From IMG/VR virus record IMGVR_UViG_3300027852_000016, positions 1-43,570 of that record: 43,570 nt of DNA, one strand, 5' to 3'. A program made the translations under genes and the position numbers. The notes under the pieces are model-generated. The model did no database searches. It was not told the DNA's origin and was given only the letters and a program-made list of their open reading frames with translations. Each line of letters begins with the position of its first letter. Positions within the stretch are counted from its first letter, which is position 1. Source of the DNA: a virus. This document shows positions 8,201 to 43,570 of the stretch, in pieces.

Positions 8201-8262
8201 TTGAAATATAACCATAGCGTTCAAAAGAAACGCTGCACGACTGTTTATCGCTAGGAGGATAA

Positions 8263-8600: not shown

Positions 8601-8903
8601 GTGGAATATAGAAAAGAGTTAGGGCCACTTAATTCATCAGAGCTTGCTCACGGTGTTAAGGGACTCAGGGCTGATGCTAGAGTTATATTACAGCAGAGTC
8701 AATCGTGGAAGAAGATGTTTGTGGGATTCTTAATACTTACATTGCCCGTCTTAGGGTGGATAACTGAGAGGGTGGTGACGTTACCTGAAACCTATATTGT
8801 AAAAGAAGAGCTTAAGGAGGTGAAGACTGATATTGTAAAGAGATTAGATAGGATAGATGATACATTAGTTTTTATTATACAGGAGATTGGGAAAGGTAGG
8901 TAG
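8601..8903 (+). CDS. single-pass membrane protein (100 aa; holin or spanin-type candidate), GTG start
   Basis: One hydrophobic span (MFVGFLILTLPVLGWI) followed by a charged helix. GGAG precedes the GTG. Last gene before the strong terminator. Confidence 0.45.
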   Translation: MEYRKELGPLNSSELAHGVKGLRADARVILQQSQSWKKMFVGFLILTLPVLGWITERVVTLPETYIVKEELKEVKTDIVKRLDRIDDTLVFIIQEIGKGR

Positions 8904-8910
8904 AGTGTTA

Positions 8911-8953
8911 AAGGCAGCAAGGTGACTAAACTCATCTTGCTGCCTTTTTTTTT
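8911..8953 (+). terminator. rho-independent terminator closing the late/virion operon
   Basis: 11-bp stem aaggcagcaag / cttgctgcctt with a 14-nt loop, followed by a T-run of 9. Confidence 0.85.
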
Positions 8954-9288
8954 ATGTCTAAACTGGATTAAAGTGGGATTCGCTATATCAAATATTAAGC
9001 CTAAATTAGAGAGCTGAGTAGGTTTTATATTATATTAGATATCAGTACAAGCTTAGGGTATAGTTCATGCGACCAGGTGTCGCTATAGATGCTTTAACAA
9101 GCATCACTGCTAGACAGATAGGCTTATATTAGCTATATTAGTCGCACATTGAGTTTTAAAAATTATATTATATGGAGAGGTGGTATTTTTTCAAAATTAT
9201 ATTATATAGGGAGTCGCTATTCATCCCCATCAGCCCAATGTTAGAACCCCCCAACGGAATTAGTTTGTACTAACTTCGATAGACATGT

Positions 9289-9487
9289 CTAACATCGCTA
9301 GGTTTGTCTATCTAAGAACGTTAGGTAAGTCTAACGGTGTTAGAATACCCTAACTTGGTTAGGTGGATCTAACTGGGCGAGGGGGTATATATACAAGGAT
9401 CACGTACTAACAACAGTAGACTAAGCTAATATTCTTAGATATATCTAACTATGTTAGGCTTATCTAACTCTGTTAGGTGTGTCTAAC
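9289..9487. repeat. cluster of CTAAC-N3-GTTAG palindromes (operator-like)
   Basis: Full sites at 9331-9343, 9350-9362, 9445-9457 and 9464-9476, plus an imperfect site at 9289-9301. Half-sites at 9320, 9369, 9407 and 9483. Confidence 0.6.
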
Positions 9488-9520
9488 TATACATCAATCT
9501 ATTAAAAGATATTAATAAAA

Positions 9521-9560
9521 CTATCTAGAAATATCCTGATCTATCCCGACCTATCCTGAT
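9521..9560. repeat. four tandem 10-bp units (ctatctagaa atatcctgat ctatcccgac ctatcctgat)
   Basis: Read directly. Exact 10-bp period. Confidence 0.6.
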
Positions 9561-9838
9561 ATTAGCCCATACCTAGGTAAGGGTTAGGGTGAGAACGTCC
9601 AACCTCGTGGCTCTATGCGATCTTATATAATGGTATGATATTACTTTATCTAGTATCTTAAAGTTTCTAGGCACAAGATATGGGATAATATGAGGTTTTG
9701 TGGGGGTTGAGATGGTTTCAGGTGGGGGTGGAAGGGGTGGGAGGATTACCTTTCCGCCCAAATCCGCCCCAATCCAAATCCTAATCTCCCTTATATAATG
9801 GTATAAATCACCCTAAGTTGGCCCAATCCCTGATAAAT

Positions 9839-9889
9839 GTCTCAAATAACCGTCTCAAGTGTCTCAAAAAGTGTCTCAAAGTGTCTCAT
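9839..9889. repeat. five direct GTCTCA(A/T) iterons
   Basis: Copies start at 9839, 9852, 9861, 9873 and 9883. Spacings are 13, 9, 12 and 10 bp, about one helical turn. Confidence 0.6.
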
Positions 9890-10194: not shown

Positions 10195-10461
10195 ATGAGA
10201 ACATTTAATATACGATCGAAAGATCGTTATAGAAACGAAGGGTACATTTCGTTTCATAGTAAAACGATCAGAGTGACCACCAAAGAGTTAATTAAAATGT
10301 TTGAAGATTATGTTGCTAAAGGAAATTGCATCAACTGTATCACCAATAAGATGAGACAAGAGGTCATAGCTCAGGCAGTTTCATCTAGGGAAGATGGTCT
10401 GGCCGATGTCAGTTCAGTGAGAATCAACAATCAGCAGGCAACAGTCGTAGTTTACTCTTAA
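10195..10461 (+). CDS. first early gene, hypothetical (88 aa)
   Basis: Track ORF. Preceded by tagggagtcaatcATG. Confidence 0.7.
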   Translation: MRTFNIRSKDRYRNEGYISFHSKTIRVTTKELIKMFEDYVAKGNCINCITNKMRQEVIAQAVSSREDGLADVSSVRINNQQATVVVYS

Positions 10462-10533
10462 TCAGGTAGATAGGGCAATGACTAAGCCGATTAGGTTGAA
10501 TTATTGCCCTTAACTATAAAACAGGGGTCAATC

Positions 10534-10839
10534 ATGGATAAAGCAAGGTTAAAGAGATTGATTGAGATTGAAACTTCAGCAAGTGACACCACCTTGAAGA
10601 GTTCAAGTGACGTTAAAGAGCACAACAACAATACTGAATTAGCTAGGCAAGACATGATTGACGCCCTAATGGCAGGGAAAGTCTTGAGTTATAACGGTTT
10701 GACTGTAATGTTTAGGGATAGCATAGAAGTCTATAAATATGATAAAGAAGGCTTCTTTGATAGGATAGCTGATTATGAGTGGTATACTGTAAATTCAGGA
10801 ATACTCTTAAGATTTATGGTAACTTTGAATAGAATTTAA
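10534..10839 (+). CDS. early protein, tandem paralog A (101 aa from ATG 10534)
   Basis: MDKARLKRLIEIETSASD... is highly similar to the product of 10933-11235. ATG preceded by ggggtcaatc. Confidence 0.7.
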   Translation: MDKARLKRLIEIETSASDTTLKSSSDVKEHNNNTELARQDMIDALMAGKVLSYNGLTVMFRDSIEVYKYDKEGFFDRIADYEWYTVNSGILLRFMVTLNRI

Positions 10840-10850
10840 CCCCTTAAAAA

Positions 10851-10919
10851 GTACCTGTAGCTCAATGGCTGCCTACGTTTCCCAGCTTTTGAGTCGACCT
10901 TGAGCGCAGGTATATTTTT
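10851..10919 (+). terminator. long interrupted hairpin plus T-run between the tandem paralogs (terminator or attenuator candidate)
   Basis: Stem 1 pairs 10852-10857 with 10907-10912. Stem 2 pairs 10860-10865 with 10900-10905. Followed by tatattttt. Confidence 0.5.
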
Positions 10920-10932
10920 AAATGAGTCAATC

Positions 10933-11235
10933 ATGGATAAAGCAAGGTTAAAGAGATTGATTGAGGTTGAAACTTCAGCGAGTGACACCATCTTAAATGG
11001 TTTAAGTGACGTTGAAGAACACAATAACAATACCGAATTAGCCAGGCAAGATATAATCGATACCCTTAAAGCATGGAAAACCTTGAACTATGACGGTTTG
11101 ACTGTAATGTTTAGGGATAATATAGAGATTTACAAGTATGATAAGGATGGTTTTTTTGATAGGATCGCTAATTATGAATGGGATACTATGAGCTCAGGCA
11201 ACCTCTTAAGGATGGTCTCTTTAAGCCAGAAGTAA
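10933..11235 (+). CDS. early protein, tandem paralog B (100 aa)
   Basis: MDKARLKRLIEVETSASD... Same length class and same upstream gagtcaatcATG as paralog A. Confidence 0.7.
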   Translation: MDKARLKRLIEVETSASDTILNGLSDVEEHNNNTELARQDIIDTLKAWKTLNYDGLTVMFRDNIEIYKYDKDGFFDRIANYEWDTMSSGNLLRMVSLSQK

Positions 11236-11249
11236 ACAGGGAGTTAATC

Positions 11250-11534
11250 ATGGATAAAAAACAATTCATAGAAGAACATGGTGAACTAGGAAGGGAACTA
11301 TTAGATACCCTTAACGACAACCTAGAAGATGCTATAAAAACCATGGAAGAAAACTATTTAGGGTGTTATAAGTCAGTGGCCGATTACGCAGAGCAATATG
11401 TTGACAGCTACGGTGCAGACATCCCAGACTTTTTAAATCCATATATTGATTTTGATGGTTTAGGATGGGATATGATGGATGATTGTATCGTTATTGAACT
11501 TATTAAAGGAGAAGTTTATATATTTGACCTTTAG
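11250..11534 (+). CDS. ArdA C-terminal-domain-like protein (94 aa), anti-restriction candidate
   Basis: FIEEHGELGRELL...EENYLGCYKSVADYAEQYVDSYGADIPDFLNPYIDFDGLGWDM...GEVYIF matches by eye the C-terminal third of ArdA. Tn916 ArdA reads ...MYDVARYYIEETGALGEVPASLQNYIDYQAYGRDL...GIFEI. Acidic. Early position. Confidence 0.5.
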   Translation: MDKKQFIEEHGELGRELLDTLNDNLEDAIKTMEENYLGCYKSVADYAEQYVDSYGADIPDFLNPYIDFDGLGWDMMDDCIVIELIKGEVYIFDL

Positions 11535-13029: not shown

Positions 13030-13241
13030 AAAAACATTTGACCGCAGAAAGATGTAGAAGGCTTTTTATGTATGATAAACATGAGATGGAACTTTATTGG
13101 AAGATGAATACAGCAAACAGAGACACATCAATCAACTTGATGAAGGTAGACAAGATTAAGGTATTAGGAAGGATGTATGACGTTCTAGATATAGTTAGAT
13201 CGTACCATTATAATAACTTTCCAGTAATGACTTGCGGGTAA
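13026..13241 (+). CDS. stand-alone HNH-N-terminal-domain-like protein, paralog 2 (71 aa)
   Basis: HLTAERCRRLFMYDKHEMELYW... AAGGAG upstream. ATGA overlap with paralog 1. Confidence 0.6.
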   Translation: MKKHLTAERCRRLFMYDKHEMELYWKMNTANRDTSINLMKVDKIKVLGRMYDVLDIVRSYHYNNFPVMTCG

Positions 13242-13255
13242 AGAGAGGTAACCTT

Positions 13256-13459
13256 ATGGAAGGATTAACCAGTGAAAGGCTTAAGGAATTGTTGACATAT
13301 AATAAATACACTAAATCTTTTACATGGAATGTAAGCCAAGGCAATAGGAGCGTAGGCAGCACCGCGGGGAACTATCGGCTAGATAGAGGATACCGAAGGA
13401 TAGCGATTGACAAGAAGCTTTATTATGTCAAAGACTTAATCAAACTTTACCTTAGTTAA
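13256..13459 (+). CDS. stand-alone HNH-N-terminal-domain-like protein, paralog 3 (67 aa)
   Basis: GLTSERLKELLTYNKYTKSFTWNV...GYRRIAIDKKLYYVKDLI is the closest match to LTQKRLKELLRYDPETGEFY...GYWHIRIDRKKYNRSRLA of the intact HNH gene. Confidence 0.65.
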   Translation: MEGLTSERLKELLTYNKYTKSFTWNVSQGNRSVGSTAGNYRLDRGYRRIAIDKKLYYVKDLIKLYLS

Positions 13460-15441: not shown

Positions 15442-16725
15442 ATGGCAATCAAAGTCTATTCACATGACATAGAACAAGCTATATTGGGAGGCATATTGCT
15501 GGCTGGAGACAAAGCCCTTGTGAAAGTTAAAGAGATTATAGAGCCAGAAGACTTTTACGCACCTGAGCATATAGAAATCTACAAGGCAATCCTTGAAGTT
15601 GGTAACGATATACTATCTATTAAAGGGTTTCTGGAAAAGCATAATAAAACACAATTTATACCGGCAGAAATGATCTCTTTAATTGTCGAGAATGTAGCAA
15701 CTTCAGCAGGTATTAAACAGCATGCTCAATCATTAAGAGATATGTCTGTAAGGCGCAAGGTTTCTGATCTAGGAATGGAGATCCAGGCATGGATTAGCCA
15801 GACCAATAAAGAAACACCAGACATACTTGCTTTAATTAAAAAACGGGTTCGACTTCTGGATGCCAGGAAGGATAGAGTTCTTGAATCTAATCTTACGATT
15901 GCACAAAACGTTTACTCAGAGATCCAAAGAAAGATGACAACCAAGAATCATACAGTTGGATGTTTGACCGGTATAGAAACTGTTGATGGTATGCTGTATG
16001 GGCTTGAGCCTAAGACTTTAATATTAATAGCAGCTAGGCCATCAATAGGAAAGACAGCCTTAGCCTTGAATATGATTGAGTATATCTCAAGGAATTATGA
16101 CGGTAAATGTATATTCTTTTCTTTGGAGATGAGCGCTGAAGCTGTTATGATGCGGAGACTTGCTTGCGCTGGGTTGGTAGGTTTAACGAATCTAAAGAAA
16201 GCTAATCTAAATGACAGCGAGATGGATAAGTTAAACTACGCACTAAACATCGTAAGCGAATCGAACGCTGTGATTATAGATAAACCATTCTTTAAATCCC
16301 TTGAGAATATTGAATCTTTCATGGCATCATACACGATGAGTAATAAAGTATCAGCTATCTTTATAGACTACGTACAACTAATGCATGTTAAGGCAAAGAC
16401 TGGTAATAGAAATCTTGAACTTGGAGTTATCAGTAGCGCCTTGAAGTCTATGGCTAAGGAATACAATGTCCCGGTTATAGCTCTTGCACAATTAAGTAGG
16501 AACAAGGATAATACGAAGCCAAAGCTAAGCAGCCTCAGAGATTCAGGAAGTCTGGAAGCTGATGCAGATGTATGTTTTATGTTGCACACTGAAGCTAGAG
16601 GTTCTATGGAACTTGAGATTGCATGCTTAAAGGCACGGGATGGTGAGCTATGGCATTCAACTTTGGCTTTTGAGGGTAGATACCAAAAGGTATACGATCA
16701 AGACCCTATCATTTACGGAGGATAA
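15442..16725 (+). CDS. dnaB: DnaB-family replicative DNA helicase (427 aa)
   Basis: Motifs read in the translation: Walker A RPSIGKTALALNM, FFSLEMS, Walker B IFIDYVQLM, ALAQLSRN, LRDSGSLEADADV. Confidence 0.85.
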   Translation: MAIKVYSHDIEQAILGGILLAGDKALVKVKEIIEPEDFYAPEHIEIYKAILEVGNDILSIKGFLEKHNKTQFIPAEMISLIVENVATSAGIKQHAQSLRDMSVRRKVSDLGMEIQAWISQTNKETPDILALIKKRVRLLDARKDRVLESNLTIAQNVYSEIQRKMTTKNHTVGCLTGIETVDGMLYGLEPKTLILIAARPSIGKTALALNMIEYISRNYDGKCIFFSLEMSAEAVMMRRLACAGLVGLTNLKKANLNDSEMDKLNYALNIVSESNAVIIDKPFFKSLENIESFMASYTMSNKVSAIFIDYVQLMHVKAKTGNRNLELGVISSALKSMAKEYNVPVIALAQLSRNKDNTKPKLSSLRDSGSLEADADVCFMLHTEARGSMELEIACLKARDGELWHSTLAFEGRYQKVYDQDPIIYGG

Positions 16726-18729: not shown

Positions 18730-19410
18730 ATGTTTACTACAATTGCAAGAGACATTCCAGATAGTTTCAACCAGCTCTTAAGGGCCATAGCTACAGAGGG
18801 TAACATATATAAAATAGACAGGGGTTCCTTCGAAGGTTCTTGCCGTAAGCAGTTAGATATAGCGATGATTAAGATATGCTTTCCGTATGACAGCAACCAT
18901 CATAACATGATTAATGCAATTCCTGAGGGGTGTACAGTTCCCAATCCTGTTGACTCTGATTTTCTGGAAGGTTATATTTACGACCTACTGTTTAACACCA
19001 AGAAAGAGGGAGAAGATTACAGCTACGGGCAACGCCTTGACAGTCAAATGGATACAGCCATAAAGATATTAAGGGAGAATCCATACACAAATCAAGTTGT
19101 TCTACAGGTAGCTCAACCATCTGATATAGAACTGGAGCACCCACCATGCTTAAGAGAGATGGAACTCAAGGTTATCAATGGTAAGTTGAACGGATATGTA
19201 ACCTTTAGATCTAATGATATCTTCAATGCCTATCTAGCAAATATAGCATCATTGGCAGTTGTAAAAGATATTATAGCCTATGGAGCAGAAGTTGAAGATG
19301 GCTGTATATACTATACTAGTTCAGGTTGCCATATATATGACCATCAGGCAGATGCAGTTGAAAGGTTACTTCACTTACCAGCGGGATCTATATTCAGACA
19401 GGAGGTGTAA
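18730..19410 (+). CDS. short thymidylate-synthase-fold enzyme (226 aa): ThyA or dUMP hydroxymethylase-type
   Basis: YGQRL...HPPCLREMELKVINGKLNGYVTFRSNDIFNAYLANIASLAVV aligns by eye with E. coli ThyA YGKQW...[41 protein letters not shown]. The catalytic Cys, the RS.D block and the pyrimidine-reading Asn are kept. Confidence 0.65.
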   Translation: MFTTIARDIPDSFNQLLRAIATEGNIYKIDRGSFEGSCRKQLDIAMIKICFPYDSNHHNMINAIPEGCTVPNPVDSDFLEGYIYDLLFNTKKEGEDYSYGQRLDSQMDTAIKILRENPYTNQVVLQVAQPSDIELEHPPCLREMELKVINGKLNGYVTFRSNDIFNAYLANIASLAVVKDIIAYGAEVEDGCIYYTSSGCHIYDHQADAVERLLHLPAGSIFRQEV

Positions 19411-19762
19411 AATCAAAACATCATCATGTAAAGCAAAGGGACGTAAGCTCCAACAGTTAGTAGCCAAGAAGATCTCTGAACTAACAGGGATACCTCATGG
19501 TAAAGACTGTTTAATAGAGTCAAGAGAGATGTCACAATCCGGGGTAGATGTTAAACTAATAGGTGAAGCCAGGGATAAGTTCCCGTTCAGCATTGAATGT
19601 AAAAACTGTGAGAAATGGACTATGCCATCCTTCATAGATCAGGCCAAGAGCAACGTAATGCCTGACACAATGTGGTTACTTGTCATGGGAAAGAATAGGA
19701 CTAAGCCTGTGGTATGTCTTGACTTGGATGACTTCTTCGAGATCATGAGCAATCAACACTAA
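19352..19762 (+). CDS. PD-(D/E)XK nuclease, archaeal-Hjc-type Holliday-junction-resolvase-like (start uncertain: 19337 or 19352)
   Basis: KGRKLQQLVAKKI...GVDVKLIG...FSIECKN gives a D...E-x-K arrangement. The ORF overlaps the 3' end of the ThyA-like gene and there is no start after that gene's stop. Confidence 0.4.
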   Translation: MQLKGYFTYQRDLYSDRRCKIKTSSCKAKGRKLQQLVAKKISELTGIPHGKDCLIESREMSQSGVDVKLIGEARDKFPFSIECKNCEKWTMPSFIDQAKSNVMPDTMWLLVMGKNRTKPVVCLDLDDFFEIMSNQH

Positions 19763-19770
19763 ATGCTATG

Positions 19771-19865
19771 AGGCTTAAAATTAGCTACGTGGAGACGATT
19801 TAGAGTGTTGTAAATAGCAAGGCAAGAGTTACTAGGAGAACATGTACTTACGTACTCTTATTTTT
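19771..19865 (+). promoter_or_regulatory. conserved intergenic element, copy B (75-nt conserved core, then hairpin and T-run)
   Basis: 19771-19845 matches 37210-37284 at 57 of 75 positions without gaps. Hairpin aagagt/actctt spans 19824-19859, then aTTTTT. Confidence 0.6.
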
Positions 19866-19888
19866 ACTCAGCTTCATAGGAGAATAAA

Positions 19889-20128
19889 ATGGATCTAGTA
19901 AAGGATATGATTAAAGGTGAGTTAGGAAGGTATCACGAATATGAGACAGATGAACTATCTTTGTTTATTATAGCCGTGGAAGCAGCAGTTAAGAATAAAC
20001 TAACGGCTGAAATCAGCTTCGGTTCAATTGATGGGTATCTCTGTTTAGCATTTAAAAGAGGTGAAGTAGTAGATACATTGTCTATACCAATGACTACTTC
20101 GGATATAGATCAAATTAAATACAGTTAA
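19889..20128 (+). CDS. hypothetical protein (79 aa)
   Basis: Track ORF. AGGAG upstream. Confidence 0.65.
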   Translation: MDLVKDMIKGELGRYHEYETDELSLFIIAVEAAVKNKLTAEISFGSIDGYLCLAFKRGEVVDTLSIPMTTSDIDQIKYS

Positions 20129-20138
20129 GGTGTGCAAT

Positions 20139-20447
20139 ATGAAAAGCTTTAATGAGACAATCGAAGACATCTTACAGGAAGCAAGGGATACGATATCAGC
20201 TAAGGGTACAGAATATATGGTTGGGTTAGATCCTTTTCACGTATTCCATGAGGCTGGCAGGATTACAGGGAAGACACCACAACAGGCAGCGTGGGCTATA
20301 GCTATCAAGCATTTGGTAAGCGTGATTGATGTAATAAAATATGATAGAGGAAACGACCTAGATTTAATTAAAGAAAAGTTTGGAGACTTGCGTAACTACT
20401 TGATATTGATAGAGGCTTCATGGAGGATGGAGAAGGAGGATGGGTAA
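20139..20447 (+). CDS. all-alpha MazG/DUF1599-like nucleotide pyrophosphohydrolase-fold protein (102 aa), tentative
   Basis: The pattern AKGTEY...F.....G.........IKHLVS.ID....D....KEKFGDLRNYLILIE recalls MazG-like or nucleotide-modification-associated helical domains. From memory only. Confidence 0.3.
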   Translation: MKSFNETIEDILQEARDTISAKGTEYMVGLDPFHVFHEAGRITGKTPQQAAWAIAIKHLVSVIDVIKYDRGNDLDLIKEKFGDLRNYLILIEASWRMEKEDG

Positions 20448-20919
20448 GAAAAAGTTAACACAGAAGAGGCTTAAGGAGCTGTTGAGGTATGACCCGGAGA
20501 CTGGTGAGTTTTACCGATTAGTTACTTGTGGTGGAAGGGTTGAGGGATCTATTACTGGTGGACGGCACCATAGCGGTTATTGGCATATAAGAATCGACAG
20601 GAAGAAATACAACCGATCACGTCTAGCATTCTTATATATGAAAGGTTACACCCCAGAGTATGAGATTGACCATATCAACAGGGTAAAAGATGATGATCGA
20701 TGGGTAAACCTTCGGCACGTGACACATAGATGTAACATGCAAAATAAAGAGATTAATATTAACAATACATCTGGTGTGATGGGAATTTATTGGCATAAGA
20801 ATCGTAGAAAATGGCAAGTGAAATACTCAGATAAATACTTTGGTCTTTACCGAGATTTCTCTAGGGCATATTATGCAAACAAAACTATACGAGCAAAGTT
20901 TAGAACTTGCTTCGCATAA
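20440..20919 (+). CDS. HNH homing endonuclease with AP2-like DNA-binding domain (159 aa), apparently intact
   Basis: EIDHINRVKDDDRWVNLRHVTHRCNMQN is the HNH core. SGVMGIYWHKNRRKWQVKY is AP2-like. The N-terminal LKELLRYDPETGEFY domain is also present. Confidence 0.75.
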   Translation: MGKKKLTQKRLKELLRYDPETGEFYRLVTCGGRVEGSITGGRHHSGYWHIRIDRKKYNRSRLAFLYMKGYTPEYEIDHINRVKDDDRWVNLRHVTHRCNMQNKEININNTSGVMGIYWHKNRRKWQVKYSDKYFGLYRDFSRAYYANKTIRAKFRTCFA

Positions 20920-22171: not shown

Positions 22172-22853
22172 TGAAAACTATTTCACTCAAGCTGGCTATA
22201 GGTTAACTGAGGAAACAGGACTAGAAAGTTCCGTTTAACTGAACATACTATATAGGGGTAAAAGAAATTCATTTTTCTTTATTCTTAGGTTTTTACAGCG
22301 CTTACTTTTCCCTGAGTTCTCTCAAATAAAAAAGCGATATATAAAAGTCTTCATCTAAGATGACACTTTTATAAAAGGATTTTAATATACTCTGCGTCAT
22401 CCTTATATAACAGACAGGGTAAAGAAGGACACACCGAAAGGCTGTGCGTTTGGAATAGTAAAGCTTACATAGAACAAATCATACACCATGTCCATCTTTA
22501 ATAGACGGATGTCAGTTGAGTGGAATTCAGCTTCACTCCCTGGATAAATAGTGGTTATATCGTGGTATTCAAGTGTTGAGTGAAGATGGCCTCAGCTACC
22601 TCCGGTTCTTTACCTTCCCGGAATTAATTAAGGTCATCGATAAAGACATGGTTGAACAATATTGCTGAGTACAGAGTGTAGGAGTGATAGCCTACGAGTT
22701 ATTAGGACATTAACTCAATGTGTAAATGTATCCATGGCCATAGTGGTGCCTCTTCTTTCTAGGAAAGTTGCTATATTTCTTAGTCTGTCCTAAGGGGTAC
22801 CACGTATAGTCTATATGACCGAGTTGCGTCCAAATTTTATATAAGGAGATATA
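22172..22853 (+). ncRNA. 682-nt ORF-free island; candidate large structured RNA or leader (class unknown)
   Basis: No ORF of 60 aa or more in any frame. By hand, the longest peptides are about 30 aa. Multiple hairpins include a GAAA-tetraloop hairpin (22430-22446) and a three-way junction (22743-22803). Confidence 0.35.
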
Positions 22854-23084
22854 ATGGAATCCGTAACAACAGATTCTTTAAAAGATATTCCAGTATGTAG
22901 AAAGCTTGAGATGGAGAAGTTAACAAATTACTGTGTTAGGAATAAATTAGATAATATCTATTATAGAAAATCGTTTTGGTTGGTCTATGCTATAAATAAT
23001 GGAGAAGTGTTCCATTACAATACTCACTACCAAAGGGTTGAGAAATGGTCTACTCAAGTTATGTTAAGTCAGCAGGTTTTTTGA
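22854..23084 (+). CDS. hypothetical protein (76 aa)
   Basis: Track ORF. AAGGAG upstream. Confidence 0.65.
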   Translation: MESVTTDSLKDIPVCRKLEMEKLTNYCVRNKLDNIYYRKSFWLVYAINNGEVFHYNTHYQRVEKWSTQVMLSQQVF

Positions 23085-23115
23085 TATAGAGATAATCCTA
23101 AAGCAGGAAAATACA

Positions 23116-34706: not shown

Positions 34707-36059
34707 ATGGCTGATGCAACATTAACAACTTATGACGAAGCTTTAAGGACTTACTATCTTGATGCCTTAAGAGAAGAGAATAATAACGAGAATATCCTGT
34801 CTGCATTCATCGAGAAGAACACGACTGCAGTCTCAGGTAACGAAGCTGTGTTTGATGTACACTACGGAAGGTCTACTGGATCAGGTTCCAGGAATGAAGG
34901 CGATGCGTTGCCTACTGCGAACTATCAGAAATATAAAACCGTGTCCATCCCGATGAGACAACATTATGGCCAGATCAAATTGTCCGGTATAGGTGTAGCA
35001 GCAACTAGAGATGCTAAAGGTTCTGCTGTTAGAATGCTGGATTCTGAAGTCAAGGGTATCTCTAACGATATTAAGAAAGAAACTAACCGTATGATGTGGG
35101 GTGCTGGTTATGGTACGCTAGCCAGATGGAGGTCTACTGTAGGTGATACATCCTATACACTTCAAAAGAAATATCGCGGTAATGCTACTGGTGGTGATGG
35201 CTTTGGTTCTACCTTTGGTGGTAAATATATGGAAGAACGAGGCGATGCTGTTCCAGTTGTTGGTGCTACCTTTGGTGGTGCTGCTACTTATACTGTAGGC
35301 ACGACTGATATGGATGTATCAGCTATCAGTGAAGCTGCTGATGGAACTTATGATACTATTACTTGTACCAATCCTGCTGTAGTTGAAGTTGCTGGTACTT
35401 TCTATATCCGACCTGCAAGTCTAGGCGCTCAGAGTACTGGTGCGAATCGTAAAGAAATGATGGGTCTCAGAGGTCTTGTAACCGACACCAATATCGATGA
35501 CATCGTACTTACTGATGGTACTGATGCTGGTGGTGATTCTACTGATTCCCTCCAGGGTCTTGATGTAGATACTTACTCTTGGTGGAAATCAATTGTAGAT
35601 GCTCACAGCTCAGGCCGTTACGCTGGACAGAGAGCTTTGACTGAGAACATGATGCAGAAAATGTTTGATAAGGTTGAAGATGCTGCTGGTAAAGGTGTTG
35701 GCCCTGACATGATTATAACGACTAAAGCACTTAAACGTGAACTGATTGAGATTAGACGTGCTGATAGGCGCTTCTTTGCTCATATGGATCTTAAGTGTGG
35801 TCACTCTGGTATCGACTTCAATGGCGTACCTTTAGTGACTGATCCTGATGCGATTGACGGTGAGATATATTTCCTTACTTTAAGCGACTTTGCGATATTC
35901 TTTATGTCAGATTACGATTGGATGTCAGAGAATGGTTCTATCTTACGACCAGTATCTGGATATGATCAGTATGAAGCAACCCTGTTCCGTTATGCTGAGA
36001 TGGGTTGTTACAACCGGAGTCACCAGGGTGTTATTTGTGACCTTAGTTACTCTAACTAA
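34707..36059 (+). CDS. major capsid protein candidate (450 aa)
   Basis: Follows the scaffold-like gene. Gly/Ala/Thr-rich. Followed by a strongly structured intergenic region, as is common after highly expressed capsid genes. Confidence 0.6.
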   Translation: MADATLTTYDEALRTYYLDALREENNNENILSAFIEKNTTAVSGNEAVFDVHYGRSTGSGSRNEGDALPTANYQKYKTVSIPMRQHYGQIKLSGIGVAATRDAKGSAVRMLDSEVKGISNDIKKETNRMMWGAGYGTLARWRSTVGDTSYTLQKKYRGNATGGDGFGSTFGGKYMEERGDAVPVVGATFGGAATYTVGTTDMDVSAISEAADGTYDTITCTNPAVVEVAGTFYIRPASLGAQSTGANRKEMMGLRGLVTDTNIDDIVLTDGTDAGGDSTDSLQGLDVDTYSWWKSIVDAHSSGRYAGQRALTENMMQKMFDKVEDAAGKGVGPDMIITTKALKRELIEIRRADRRFFAHMDLKCGHSGIDFNGVPLVTDPDAIDGEIYFLTLSDFAIFFMSDYDWMSENGSILRPVSGYDQYEATLFRYAEMGCYNRSHQGVICDLSYSN

Positions 36060-36075
36060 AACCCAGTATCCTTTT

Positions 36076-36149
36076 GAGGTAGGTGGGATAGTAACCTTTT
36101 AGGTTACATCCCTATAGCGACTTTTCAGTCGCAGGATGTTTTCTACCTC
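36076..36149 (+). terminator. multi-helix RNA structure after the capsid gene (terminator, attenuator or stabiliser)
   Basis: Outer helix GAGGTAG (36076-36082) pairs with CTACCTC (36143-36149). Nested hairpins are GTAACC/GGTTAC (36091-36107) and ATCC..GCGAC-ttttca-GTCGC..GGAT (36108-36137), followed by gTTTT. Confidence 0.5.
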
Positions 36150-36188
36150 ATTAGGGGTAAACTATTCACAAATATAAAGGAATATAAA

Positions 36189-37151
36189 ATGATAAAAGCA
36201 AGAAACTTAGATCCAAGTATTAGACGAATCATTGAGGGCATGGGCGTTGCTGGTGTTTCAGATATACATTACGTTGCAACGGTTGCTGGCAATACTCATG
36301 AGTTCCTTGATGGTAAAGTCGAATCAGACAAACTACATCCTACTATCGGTGATGCTTATGTTAATGTAGAAAGTGGTCGTAACGATACTATCTTATTATC
36401 TCCTGATAGTCATTCACAAGCCGCTGCTTTAACCTTTGATAAGAACATGACCCACCTCGTTGGTATGTATCCAGATGCAGCTATGAACCACAGAGCACGT
36501 ATTGGGCATAGTGATGACTTCGATGCTCTAATTACTGTAAGTGGTTATGGCAATCTATTCTCCAATATCTATACGATGCATGGCAGGGGCAGTGCAACTA
36601 ACCTCCATAATCTAGAAGTTACTGGTGATAGGAATACATTCAAGAAATGTCATTTCGGTGGGCCGATGAATGCTACCGAATCTGGAACTGCTGGTTATTC
36701 TACTATCGAGCTAACTGGTGCTAAGGAAACTTTATTCGAGGATTGTACGTTAGGAATTGAAACGATAGCCAGATCAGCGGCTAACTCTGTAATCAGGGTT
36801 GGTACTGATTCAAGCAGGAATATCTTCAAGGGCTGTAAAATCCTTTCCATGTCAAGCGCAACCACACCTTACTATGTGGAGATTGGTTCATCAGTTACCT
36901 ACGGATGGACGATGTTTGAAGATTGTATCTTTATCAATAACTCTTCTTCGTGGACATCAAATCTGGCACTCGGTGTTAAGTTTGGGCCAGCTACAACTGC
37001 TCATAGAGTCTTCTTTAAAAATTGTCAGATGTATAATATAACAGATGTAACCGACAATACAAAAGAGGCCGGTGTTTTATTGAACACTGTATGGTCAGCA
37101 GCCGATGCAGCGCATATCGGATTACCAATATCTCCAGATCACACTGCTTAA
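36189..37151 (+). CDS. right-handed parallel beta-helix (pectin-lyase-fold-like) protein (320 aa)
   Basis: Repeating turns with the pattern ...N.F..C.F/I...: NTFKKCHFGG, TLFEDCTLGI, NIFKGCKILS, TMFEDCIFIN, VFFKNCQMYN. Confidence 0.5.
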   Translation: MIKARNLDPSIRRIIEGMGVAGVSDIHYVATVAGNTHEFLDGKVESDKLHPTIGDAYVNVESGRNDTILLSPDSHSQAAALTFDKNMTHLVGMYPDAAMNHRARIGHSDDFDALITVSGYGNLFSNIYTMHGRGSATNLHNLEVTGDRNTFKKCHFGGPMNATESGTAGYSTIELTGAKETLFEDCTLGIETIARSAANSVIRVGTDSSRNIFKGCKILSMSSATTPYYVEIGSSVTYGWTMFEDCIFINNSSSWTSNLALGVKFGPATTAHRVFFKNCQMYNITDVTDNTKEAGVLLNTVWSAADAAHIGLPISPDHTA

Positions 37152-37161
37152 TTAACCTTTT

Positions 37162-37190
37162 TAGCTGTGTAGACCAGTTCTACATAGCTA
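37162..37190 (+). other. 12-bp perfect-plus-one-GU hairpin just after the beta-helix gene
   Basis: tagctgtgtaga-ccagt-tctacatagcta. Confidence 0.6.
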
Positions 37191-37209
37191 AATCAGACCA
37201 AATCCCACT

Positions 37210-37314
37210 AGGCTTAATATTAGCTACGTGGGTAGACTTTAGTGTATCGAGAATAGCAAGGCAAGCTTTACAGGGAGAACGTGGATTGACGATACCTTAT
37301 CTTAATCCGTTTTT
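37210..37314 (+). promoter_or_regulatory. conserved intergenic element, copy A (75-nt conserved core, then hairpin and T-run)
   Basis: 37210-37284 matches 19771-19845 at 57 of 75 positions. GGATT/AATCC hairpin at 37283-37308, followed by gTTTTT. Confidence 0.6.
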
Positions 37315-43397: not shown

Positions 43398-43570
43398 GCC
43401 TGGAACATATGAAGATGCACTCAGGGCTGAAGCACAGAAGCAAGCAGCATACTTAAGCTCAATGGATCAATACTATGCAGAGCTTGAGGAGTCAACTAGG
43501 CAATTCAACGAAACCATGGCTTGGTCTCAAGAAAGCTTTAAGTTGGCAGCAGATGCAAAGAGATGGGAGA
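43348..43570 (+). CDS. 5' part of the junction-spanning gene (full product about 212 aa, charged coiled-coil-like virion-module protein)
   Basis: ATG at 43348 (MANGIGLFLPSEAAYSRPGTYEDALRAEAQKQAAYLSSMDQYY...) runs in frame into the repeat. It continues as track ORF 19..543 once the overlap is collapsed. Confidence 0.65.
   Translation, partial: MANGIGLFLPSEAAYSRPGTYEDALRAEAQKQAAYLSSMDQYYAELEESTRQFNETMAWSQESFKLAADAKRWE
43444..43570. repeat. terminal direct repeat, copy 2 (identical to 1-127)
   Basis: Same 127-nt string as the window start. Confidence 0.9.

Follow-up and report, generated by a model that had tools for sequence, protein, structure and literature searches.

The repeated non-coding element at 19771-19845 of the window (the whole 43,570-nucleotide stretch of viral DNA analysed here), referred to as copy B, most likely represents unremarkable signalling DNA of a gene spacer that has been duplicated. 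This reading of the sequence is drawn from two results, namely that copy B is absent from each of the related phages that were found and that neither it nor its partner, copy A, gives any sign of a folded RNA. The duplicated spacer may act as a weak terminator and leader, a role that we favour tentatively, at slightly under an even chance; we infer this role, as well as the spread of the element by recombination, perhaps aided by homing endonucleases.

Copy B would be a lineage-specific secondary copy of copy A, the spacer separating the head genes from the next structural gene, presumed to encode a connector or tail protein. In this small clade of phages, the signals at the A locus are, in order, a stop codon, a strong hairpin, a rapidly diverging spacer of ~90 nt, a short conserved hairpin followed by a T-run, and the leader and ribosome-binding site (RBS) of the next gene. 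About 110 nt of this spacer would have been copied by recombination into an insert hot spot after the RusA-like gene. The segment would punctuate the activity of the host RNA polymerase, being an untranslated operon tail with a leaky intrinsic terminator before the next RBS, and transcription would step down yet continue into the next module. The blocks shared by the two copies would be alike mainly because the duplication is recent, and not because an RNA fold has been maintained. As found, the element is of minor importance, one more short non-coding DNA copied between module junctions in a mosaic, HNH-rich phage. It also illustrates a trap, in which the similarity of copies within one genome is read as functional conservation while orthologues show a nearly neutral core and a dispensable copy.

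Genome and gene context

The window represents a phage genome of ~43.4 kb, assembled as a circle, in which bases 1-127 recur at 43444-43570. It has a G+C content of 39% and carries every gene on the + strand. No DNA match to it was found among 50,697 isolated phage records, and its major head protein has at most 25% identity to any protein of these records. Gene layout was assigned from PHROGs and Pfam. Early small genes, including one for an ArdA-like protein, begin at 10195 and are followed by a replication initiator-like protein, DnaB (15442-16725), an exonuclease, thymidylate synthase and a RusA-like resolvase (19280-19762), after which comes copy B. Small genes and an HNH endonuclease gene (20440-20919) lie 3′ of copy B, and genes for ribonucleotide reductase, the large terminase and the portal follow in this order up to the major head protein (34707-36059). 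Next is a 320-aa protein (36189-37151), then copy A, then the downstream structural genes, presumed to encode connector and tail. A strong late terminator (-25.5 kcal/mol) is found at 8910-8947.

The placement at module boundaries described in the original prediction holds, copy B lying after the RusA-like gene and copy A after the genes of the major head protein and the 320-aa protein. The anatomy it described is also present, with a shared non-coding segment, hairpin, T-run, RBS and gene in a genome with one transcription direction. Its statement that the phage has no recognisable antiterminator or RNA polymerase agrees with PHROGs and Pfam scans of ~50 of the ~70 predicted proteins, in which no RNA polymerase, sigma factor or antiterminator was detected. 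About half of the scanned proteins are without annotation, and a phage transcription factor may be hidden among these proteins of no known function. Prophage relatives of the 320-aa protein, sought for host identification, gave no matches, so that promoter expectations rest on the strong Shine-Dalgarno sites and the TATAAT-like boxes of the early region.

Anatomy of the repeat

The ungapped repeat between 19771-19845 and 37210-37284 is real, with 58 of the 75 positions identical instead of the 57 first counted. It includes a 22-mer, AGGCTTAAWATTAGCTACGTGG, which occurs only at these two sites in the window (0 expected, 100 shuffles). Longer alignments are given by a repeat finder (19758-19864 versus 37197-37303; 107 nt, 73%) and by BLASTN with the B region as query on the window (19752-19864 versus 37190-37303; 76% over 110 nt, E = 6e-15), and nhmmer extends copy B over 19752-19874. 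The homology begins ~20 nt upstream of the start originally given, and in copy B it therefore covers the stop codon of the RusA-like gene.

Copy B, read on the + strand, starts with this upstream extension (19751-19770, from the alignment and the repeat finder), and shares these bases in part with the end of the RusA-like gene, namely its final codons and its stop (19760-19762). Block 1, AGGCTTAAAATTAGCTACGTGG, follows at 19771-19792 and is the exact 22-mer in common with 37210-37231. The middle region (19793-19841) contains two blocks that are invariant in all four known element sequences, ATAGCAAGGCAAG (19814-19826) and GAGAAC (19836-19841). A weak hairpin with a T-run comes next, and the RBS (AGGAG) and ATG of a 79-aa gene, identified from the sequence and the list of open reading frames (ORFs), occupy 19878-19891; homologues of this gene are present in relatives. 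Copy A, also on the + strand, has its upstream extension and block 1 at 37190-37231, with block 1 (AGGCTTAATATTAGCTACGTGG) at 37210-37231, and its middle region at 37232-37280, with ATAGCAAGGCAAG at 37253-37265 and GAGAAC at 37275-37280. Similarity between the two copies falls along the element, from 15/16 in block 1 to 41/55 in the middle region and 16/28 in the hairpin region.

Distribution and divergence among relatives

Orthologues of copy A were found at the same locus in two relatives. One is an ~80% identical contig, IMGVR_UViG_3300027834_000002 (Ga0209344_10000906, comprising loci L135, L149, L158 and L189), which has a single orthologue of copy A (on L135/L149) and no other copy of the element. 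The other is L186. Block 1 of copy A is kept at 15/16 positions in L135 and is unrecognisable in L186 (best 10/15 with two gaps, read by eye), which retains the element from ACGTGGG to the hairpin that follows the core. More distant relatives, whose 320-aa protein is 47-59% identical, have only a GC-rich hairpin after that gene, in some cases with a T-run, and termination there thus seems to be ancestral. Very few relatives, about five, came out of the collections covered by pattern scans and protein-guided look-ups. The scans, run on contigs of IMG/VR and of JGI metagenomes and on 185,579 reference genomes, gave no further copies, and neither did nhmmer over 1.9 Mb of fetched loci; only the window phage, the one close relative and L186 were recovered, the other matches being due to chance.

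Five related sequences, representing at least four related phages, have no copy B where the 79-aa gene adjoins its upstream neighbour. The junction consists of a spacer of ~32 nt in L137 and of 10 nt in L188 and L189, where a PDDEXK-type gene, and not RusA, lies upstream; L188 and L189 are separate assemblies of one phage, the one in which the L135 orthologue of copy A is found. An unrelated ORF of ~110 aa occupies the junction in L136 and L138. Different relatives have, in other words, different inserts at the junction that follows the RusA-like gene in the window and, as judged from these sequences, copy B is dispensable in relatives.

The 55-nt middle region has 70-76% identity among the orthologues of copy A, and 75% between copies B and A. 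Four-fold degenerate sites of the flanking genes differ by 27-55% between the window and L135 and by 32-44% between the window and L186. Since the divergence of the middle region is about that of the four-fold sites, the shared core appears close to neutral. The sites of difference between the paralogues A and B show no coincidence with the sites at which A and its L135 orthologue differ (p = 0.39). Only the hairpin that follows the core of copy A (37283-37308; hairpin 2 below) is strongly conserved (28/28 in L135 and 26/28 in L186). A lack of core conservation in homologous phages, which the original prediction had named as evidence against a functional element, is largely what was found, copy B being missing from 5/5 junctions and the core of copy A diverging at about the four-fold-site rate.

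Over the 71 nt of block 1 plus the middle region, copy B matches copy A of its own genome at 56/71 positions and copy A of L135 at 49/71. The closeness of B to the A of its own genome fits an intragenomic duplication or a later gene conversion. On a rough estimate, the blocks ATAGCAAGGYAAG and GAGAAC, invariant in all four sequences, exceed what is expected from a pairwise identity of ~73%, which hints at some sequence-specific constraint, and this constraint would lie outside the explanation by a duplicated spacer.

Hairpins and transcription termination

Two hairpins flank the core at the A locus. Hairpin 1 (37160-37192, + strand; -18 kcal/mol, z = -7.0) lies just past the stop codon of the 320-aa gene and corresponds in position to the terminator hairpin that follows this gene across the wider phage family. 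Among three close relatives, the post-gene hairpin is located at 37160-37192 in the window, ~4976-5008 in L135 and ~411-447 in L186, with its structure kept and its sequences unrelated. Hairpin 2 (GGATTGACGATACCTTATCTTAATCC) with its T-run (37310-37314) occupies 37283-37314 on the + strand (-8.7 kcal/mol, z = -3.05). The hairpin of copy B (AAGAGT...ACTCTT) with its T-run (19861-19865) spans 19824-19865, + strand, and is weak (-6.6 kcal/mol, z = -0.73). With 16/28 identities between the two hairpin regions, these structures are not homologous, and copy B cannot form hairpin 2.

The claim that each core is followed by a hairpin and U-run stands in part. Both copies have a T-run, of five T each, but the terminator scan calls neither hairpin, and that of copy A is only modest; both are weaker (-8.7 and -6.6 kcal/mol) than the late terminator (-25.5 kcal/mol). 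Because the hairpin of copy B is no more stable than shuffles and is negative in the scan, a terminator role for copy B is weak.

Two further groups of hairpins occur in the late-gene spacers and their surroundings. The motif (C/T)(C/T)ATAGCG is found at 8214, 8561 and 36112 on the + strand and at 9081 on the - strand. A short hairpin comes after it in every case, with the GCG of the motif at the start of the 5′ arm. All four sites are non-coding, three in late-gene spacers and one in the long region past the late terminator. The 8-mer alone is within chance, and the common hairpin context is what is striking. In addition, the spacer between the major head protein and the 320-aa gene contains a nested multi-hairpin (36076-36152) with the outer stem GAGGTAG/CTACCTC and two inner hairpins.

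Tests for RNA, promoter and coding function

A known RNA family was excluded with Rfam 15, which gave no match in the whole window at the gathering score and, for the surroundings of each copy at E <= 10, nothing above chance level. Minimum free energy z-scores are -0.14 and -0.34 for the two cores and -0.32 and -1.23 for the cores with their hairpins; on both strands, the folds of the two copies are no better than those of shuffles. The consensus fold calculated with RNAalifold reaches -7.4 kcal/mol. Covariation was assessed on four independent element sequences, all that the searched collections gave, and has little power; pair counts in the four-sequence alignment revealed no compensatory changes in the block-1 stem or in hairpin 2. 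Single-sequence folds, RNAalifold and pair counts all give no support to a structured RNA.

An alternative long-range helix, joining alignment columns 21-41 with columns 70-88, would compete with hairpin 2. It is paired in 85% of the cells, with two compensatory changes, but it was derived from the same four sequences that were used to score the pairing, and its energies in these sequences (-6.0, +2.2, +10.3 and +4.6 kcal/mol) are weak or positive throughout. As a candidate antiterminator helix it was rejected.

No sigma-70 -35/-10 pair is conserved at aligned positions of the four sequences. The best mean score, 7.75/12, lies within the range that such promoter scans give on shuffled sequence, and the idea of a promoter plus leader, put forward in the original prediction, finds no support in its sigma-70 form. 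L135 has TTAGCC-17-TATAAT, which the other copies are without. A GAGAAC-N17-TANNTT promoter class was discarded, its matches being confined to the two copies themselves. Likenesses to sigma-54 promoters, ops and lambda boxA were checked by eye against consensus sequences, and none is conserved across copies.

A coding remnant was also rejected, since neither copy B nor L135 keeps the 87-aa ORF of copy A open in any frame. An in-frame TAG is common to the copies inside TTTAG, and the substitutions show no codon-position bias. Likewise, the element is not a remnant of an HNH gene 3′ end, as local alignment is no better than with shuffles (p = 0.41-0.82).

Alternative explanations

The most probable alternative, which we consider rather unlikely, is a functionless scar. 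Copy B and the short copies of block 1 at 9120 and 8986 (see below) would be neutral products of illegitimate recombination or of gene conversion under repeated homing-endonuclease attack, and function would be confined to the A locus, to its hairpin 2 and leader. The absence of copy B from all relatives and of the 9120 motif from a close relative, the nearly neutral divergence of the core, the lack of significance of the B hairpin and the lack of a recognisable block 1 in L186 all agree with a scar. Against it stand the similarity gradient from block 1 to the hairpin region and the invariance of a 13-nt and a 6-nt block in four sequences; moreover, other non-coding DNA is unalignable at equal divergence (8894-9856 versus L158).

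A phage-specific or factor-dependent promoter with a leader, situated in block 1 and starting transcription near the conserved TAGCTACGTGG, is distinctly unlikely, and so is its use by the host RNA polymerase, perhaps together with an unrecognised phage factor. Positions 6-11 of block 1 provide a -10-like TAAAAT, TAATAT or TATATT, with a conserved AGGC just upstream, and block 1 is both the part best kept between the paralogues and the part that recurs at the start of the early region. Promoter scans give TCAACA-17-TAAAAT (9/12) in copy B and TAGACA-17-TATATT (10/12) at 9111-9139, overlapping the 9120 motif, and the many phage proteins of no known function leave room for a hidden factor. However, no aligned -35/-10 pair is conserved, as shown by the shuffle-like mean score given above, the relative contains just one copy, located outside its early region, block 1 is unrecognisable in L186, and such a promoter would fire directly into a hairpin and T-run.

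Improbable, too, is a small RNA that is made from its own promoter or cut from a 3′ UTR, ends at the hairpin/U-run and pairs with host mRNAs through a seed, the single-stranded and invariant AUAGCAAGGCAAG. The position of a conserved block upstream of a terminal hairpin and U-run at the 3′ end of two operons would suit it, as would the 13-nt block that is invariant in four sequences, but the phage coding strand has no site complementary to AUAGCAAGGCAAG with <=3 mismatches, no fold is shared and copy B is dispensable in relatives. We give similarly little credence to the combined reading that block 1 is a non-canonical promoter or factor site from which an RNA of ~80-90 nt, ending at the hairpin/U-run, is made, with the unfolded AUAGCAAGGCAAG and GAGAAC as its acting parts; its supposed action on the polymerase, tuning read-through, or in trans on host mRNAs is held at the same low level. 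Such an RNA, if it exists, would be a new and very narrowly distributed phage regulatory RNA, and, should this minority reading be right, an unstructured RNA would control the passage between modules in a phage wholly reliant on the host polymerase.

The explanation favoured in the original prediction, an RNA that acts in cis in the manner of HK022 put, by processive antitermination (or else like a riboswitch-type attenuator), and lets the polymerase pass the downstream hairpin, is very improbable, for although two copies of similar size each precede a hairpin and T-run in a phage without a recognised antiterminator protein, and although the long-range helix pairs well by count, that helix is weak or unfavourable in energy and was derived from the very sequences that it is scored on, Rfam gives no match, the folds (z of -0.1 to -1.2; consensus of -7.4 kcal/mol) are unremarkable, the core diverges at a nearly neutral rate, copy B is missing in relatives, and the hairpins are weak terminators that would hardly need suppression.

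Relation to known phage elements

The closest behavioural likeness of the element is to the PeSL (promoter-early stem-loop) cassettes of T4-type phages, which it resembles by analogy. These are repeated promoter/stem-loop spacers associated with indel junctions and module shuffling (Arbiol et al. 2010, PMC2839356; Comeau et al. 2014, PMC4122927); PMC2839356 describes them as having a consensus sigma-70 promoter, as numbering ~50 per genome and as lying in hyperplastic regions. Like a PeSL, the present element is a short repeated intergenic cassette that runs from a stop codon to an RBS, with a candidate stem-loop that is not significant in copy B (z = -0.73) and modest in copy A (z = -3.05); PeSLs sit at insertion, deletion or replacement junctions of close relatives, where they provide patches of homology for recombination, and the element may do likewise. 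By the measure of copy number, the window has two long copies and two short fragments, with copy B exactly at the replacement junction of the relatives. In contrast to PeSLs, with their sigma-70 promoter and ~50 copies, the element is without a conserved sigma-70 promoter, has two long copies and belongs to an unrelated phage of ~43 kb. It is not a member of the PeSL family because the defining sigma-70 promoter is missing.

The HK022 elements putL and putR, each ~70 nt long, likewise make up a pair within one genome and precede terminators, and HK022 has no antiterminator of the N type. The put RNAs are defined by two stable stem-loops that are maintained between the copies. Our element is alike in having two non-coding copies of similar size upstream of candidate terminators, but differs in being without a stable or conserved fold and in that one copy is dispensable in relatives. 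Leaky intrinsic terminators between capsid and downstream structural genes, such as T-phi after gene 10 of T7, are comparable in position, directly past abundant head-protein genes, and a hairpin is found at that spot across the wider family of the present phage. Unlike T-phi, the hairpins of the element are AT-rich and weak, and its 75-nt core is upstream of the hairpin and outside any terminator.

A fourth comparison concerns the seg and mob loci of T4, which are free-standing homing endonuclease loci with co-converted flanks. Similarly, mosaic junctions in this lineage coincide with HNH genes, intact and decayed, which are scattered over its intergenic sites, including one inside the A locus of L186, where an HNH gene 41% identical to that of the window is inserted between the post-gene hairpin and the element. 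The element differs in that it has no similarity to HNH gene 3′ ends. The HNH genes of the window belong to one PHROG family, with one intact (20440-20919) and two decayed members. The decayed ones are an N-terminal fragment and a split gene, located among 13232-13459, 23580-23855 and 23880-24101. L188 has three HNH genes, and further copies are found at other sites in relatives. The link between homing endonucleases and the element is circumstantial.

Short copies of block 1 and the region past the late terminator

The original prediction had reported a third, short copy of block 1 at 9120-9135. This copy (AGGCTTATATTAGCTA, + strand) is present beyond chance, a site within one edit of the 17-mer being seen in 0/200 Markov-simulated genomes, but it equals the first block minus one base and is not an ungapped match. 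It lies 173 nt past the strong late terminator, in a long non-coding region. An inverted partial copy, AGGCTTAATATTTGATA, is found at 8986-9002 on the - strand. With three to four occurrences in the window, block 1 is far more frequent than expected by chance, and duplication alone gives no explanation of these excess copies. Block 1 (AGGCTTAAWATTAGCTA), spread further within the genome, may be a protein-binding or recombination-prone motif.

The copies at 8986-9002 and 9120-9135 are mutually inverted and bracket 117 nt directly 3′ of the late terminator, an arrangement reminiscent of a small element, mobile or invertible, with inverted repeats at its ends. The close relative has neither copy, the 9120 motif being missing from the equivalent region. 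This region is unalignable with the window, since 8894-9856 gives no BLAST match in L158.

Iteron-like arrays were also observed in this 1.3-kb non-coding region, at 9230-9490 and 9838-9888, with TCTAAC / GTTAGG inverted units and five GTCTCAA repeats. The related contigs L137 and L138 both stop at the equivalent of ~9445, and the iteron-like region (9230-9888), with these contig ends, may be an origin of replication or a genome end.

Other features of the genome

The ArdA-like antirestriction protein of the early region is encoded at 11178-11534 (Pfam PF07275, E = 1e-12). Close to it, the early genes at 10504-10839 and 10900-11235 are tandem paralogues, with 285 nt at 83% identity. A family of short repeats with three members, near 24113, 24296 and 24523 (24113-24581), is placed at the starts and ends of small ORFs. 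Finally, a stretch of ~680 nt at 22172-22853 has no ORF of at least 50 aa on either strand, has no Rfam match and has a fold z-score of only -1.0; most of it falls within 22275-23085, which is 87% identical in the relative L137.
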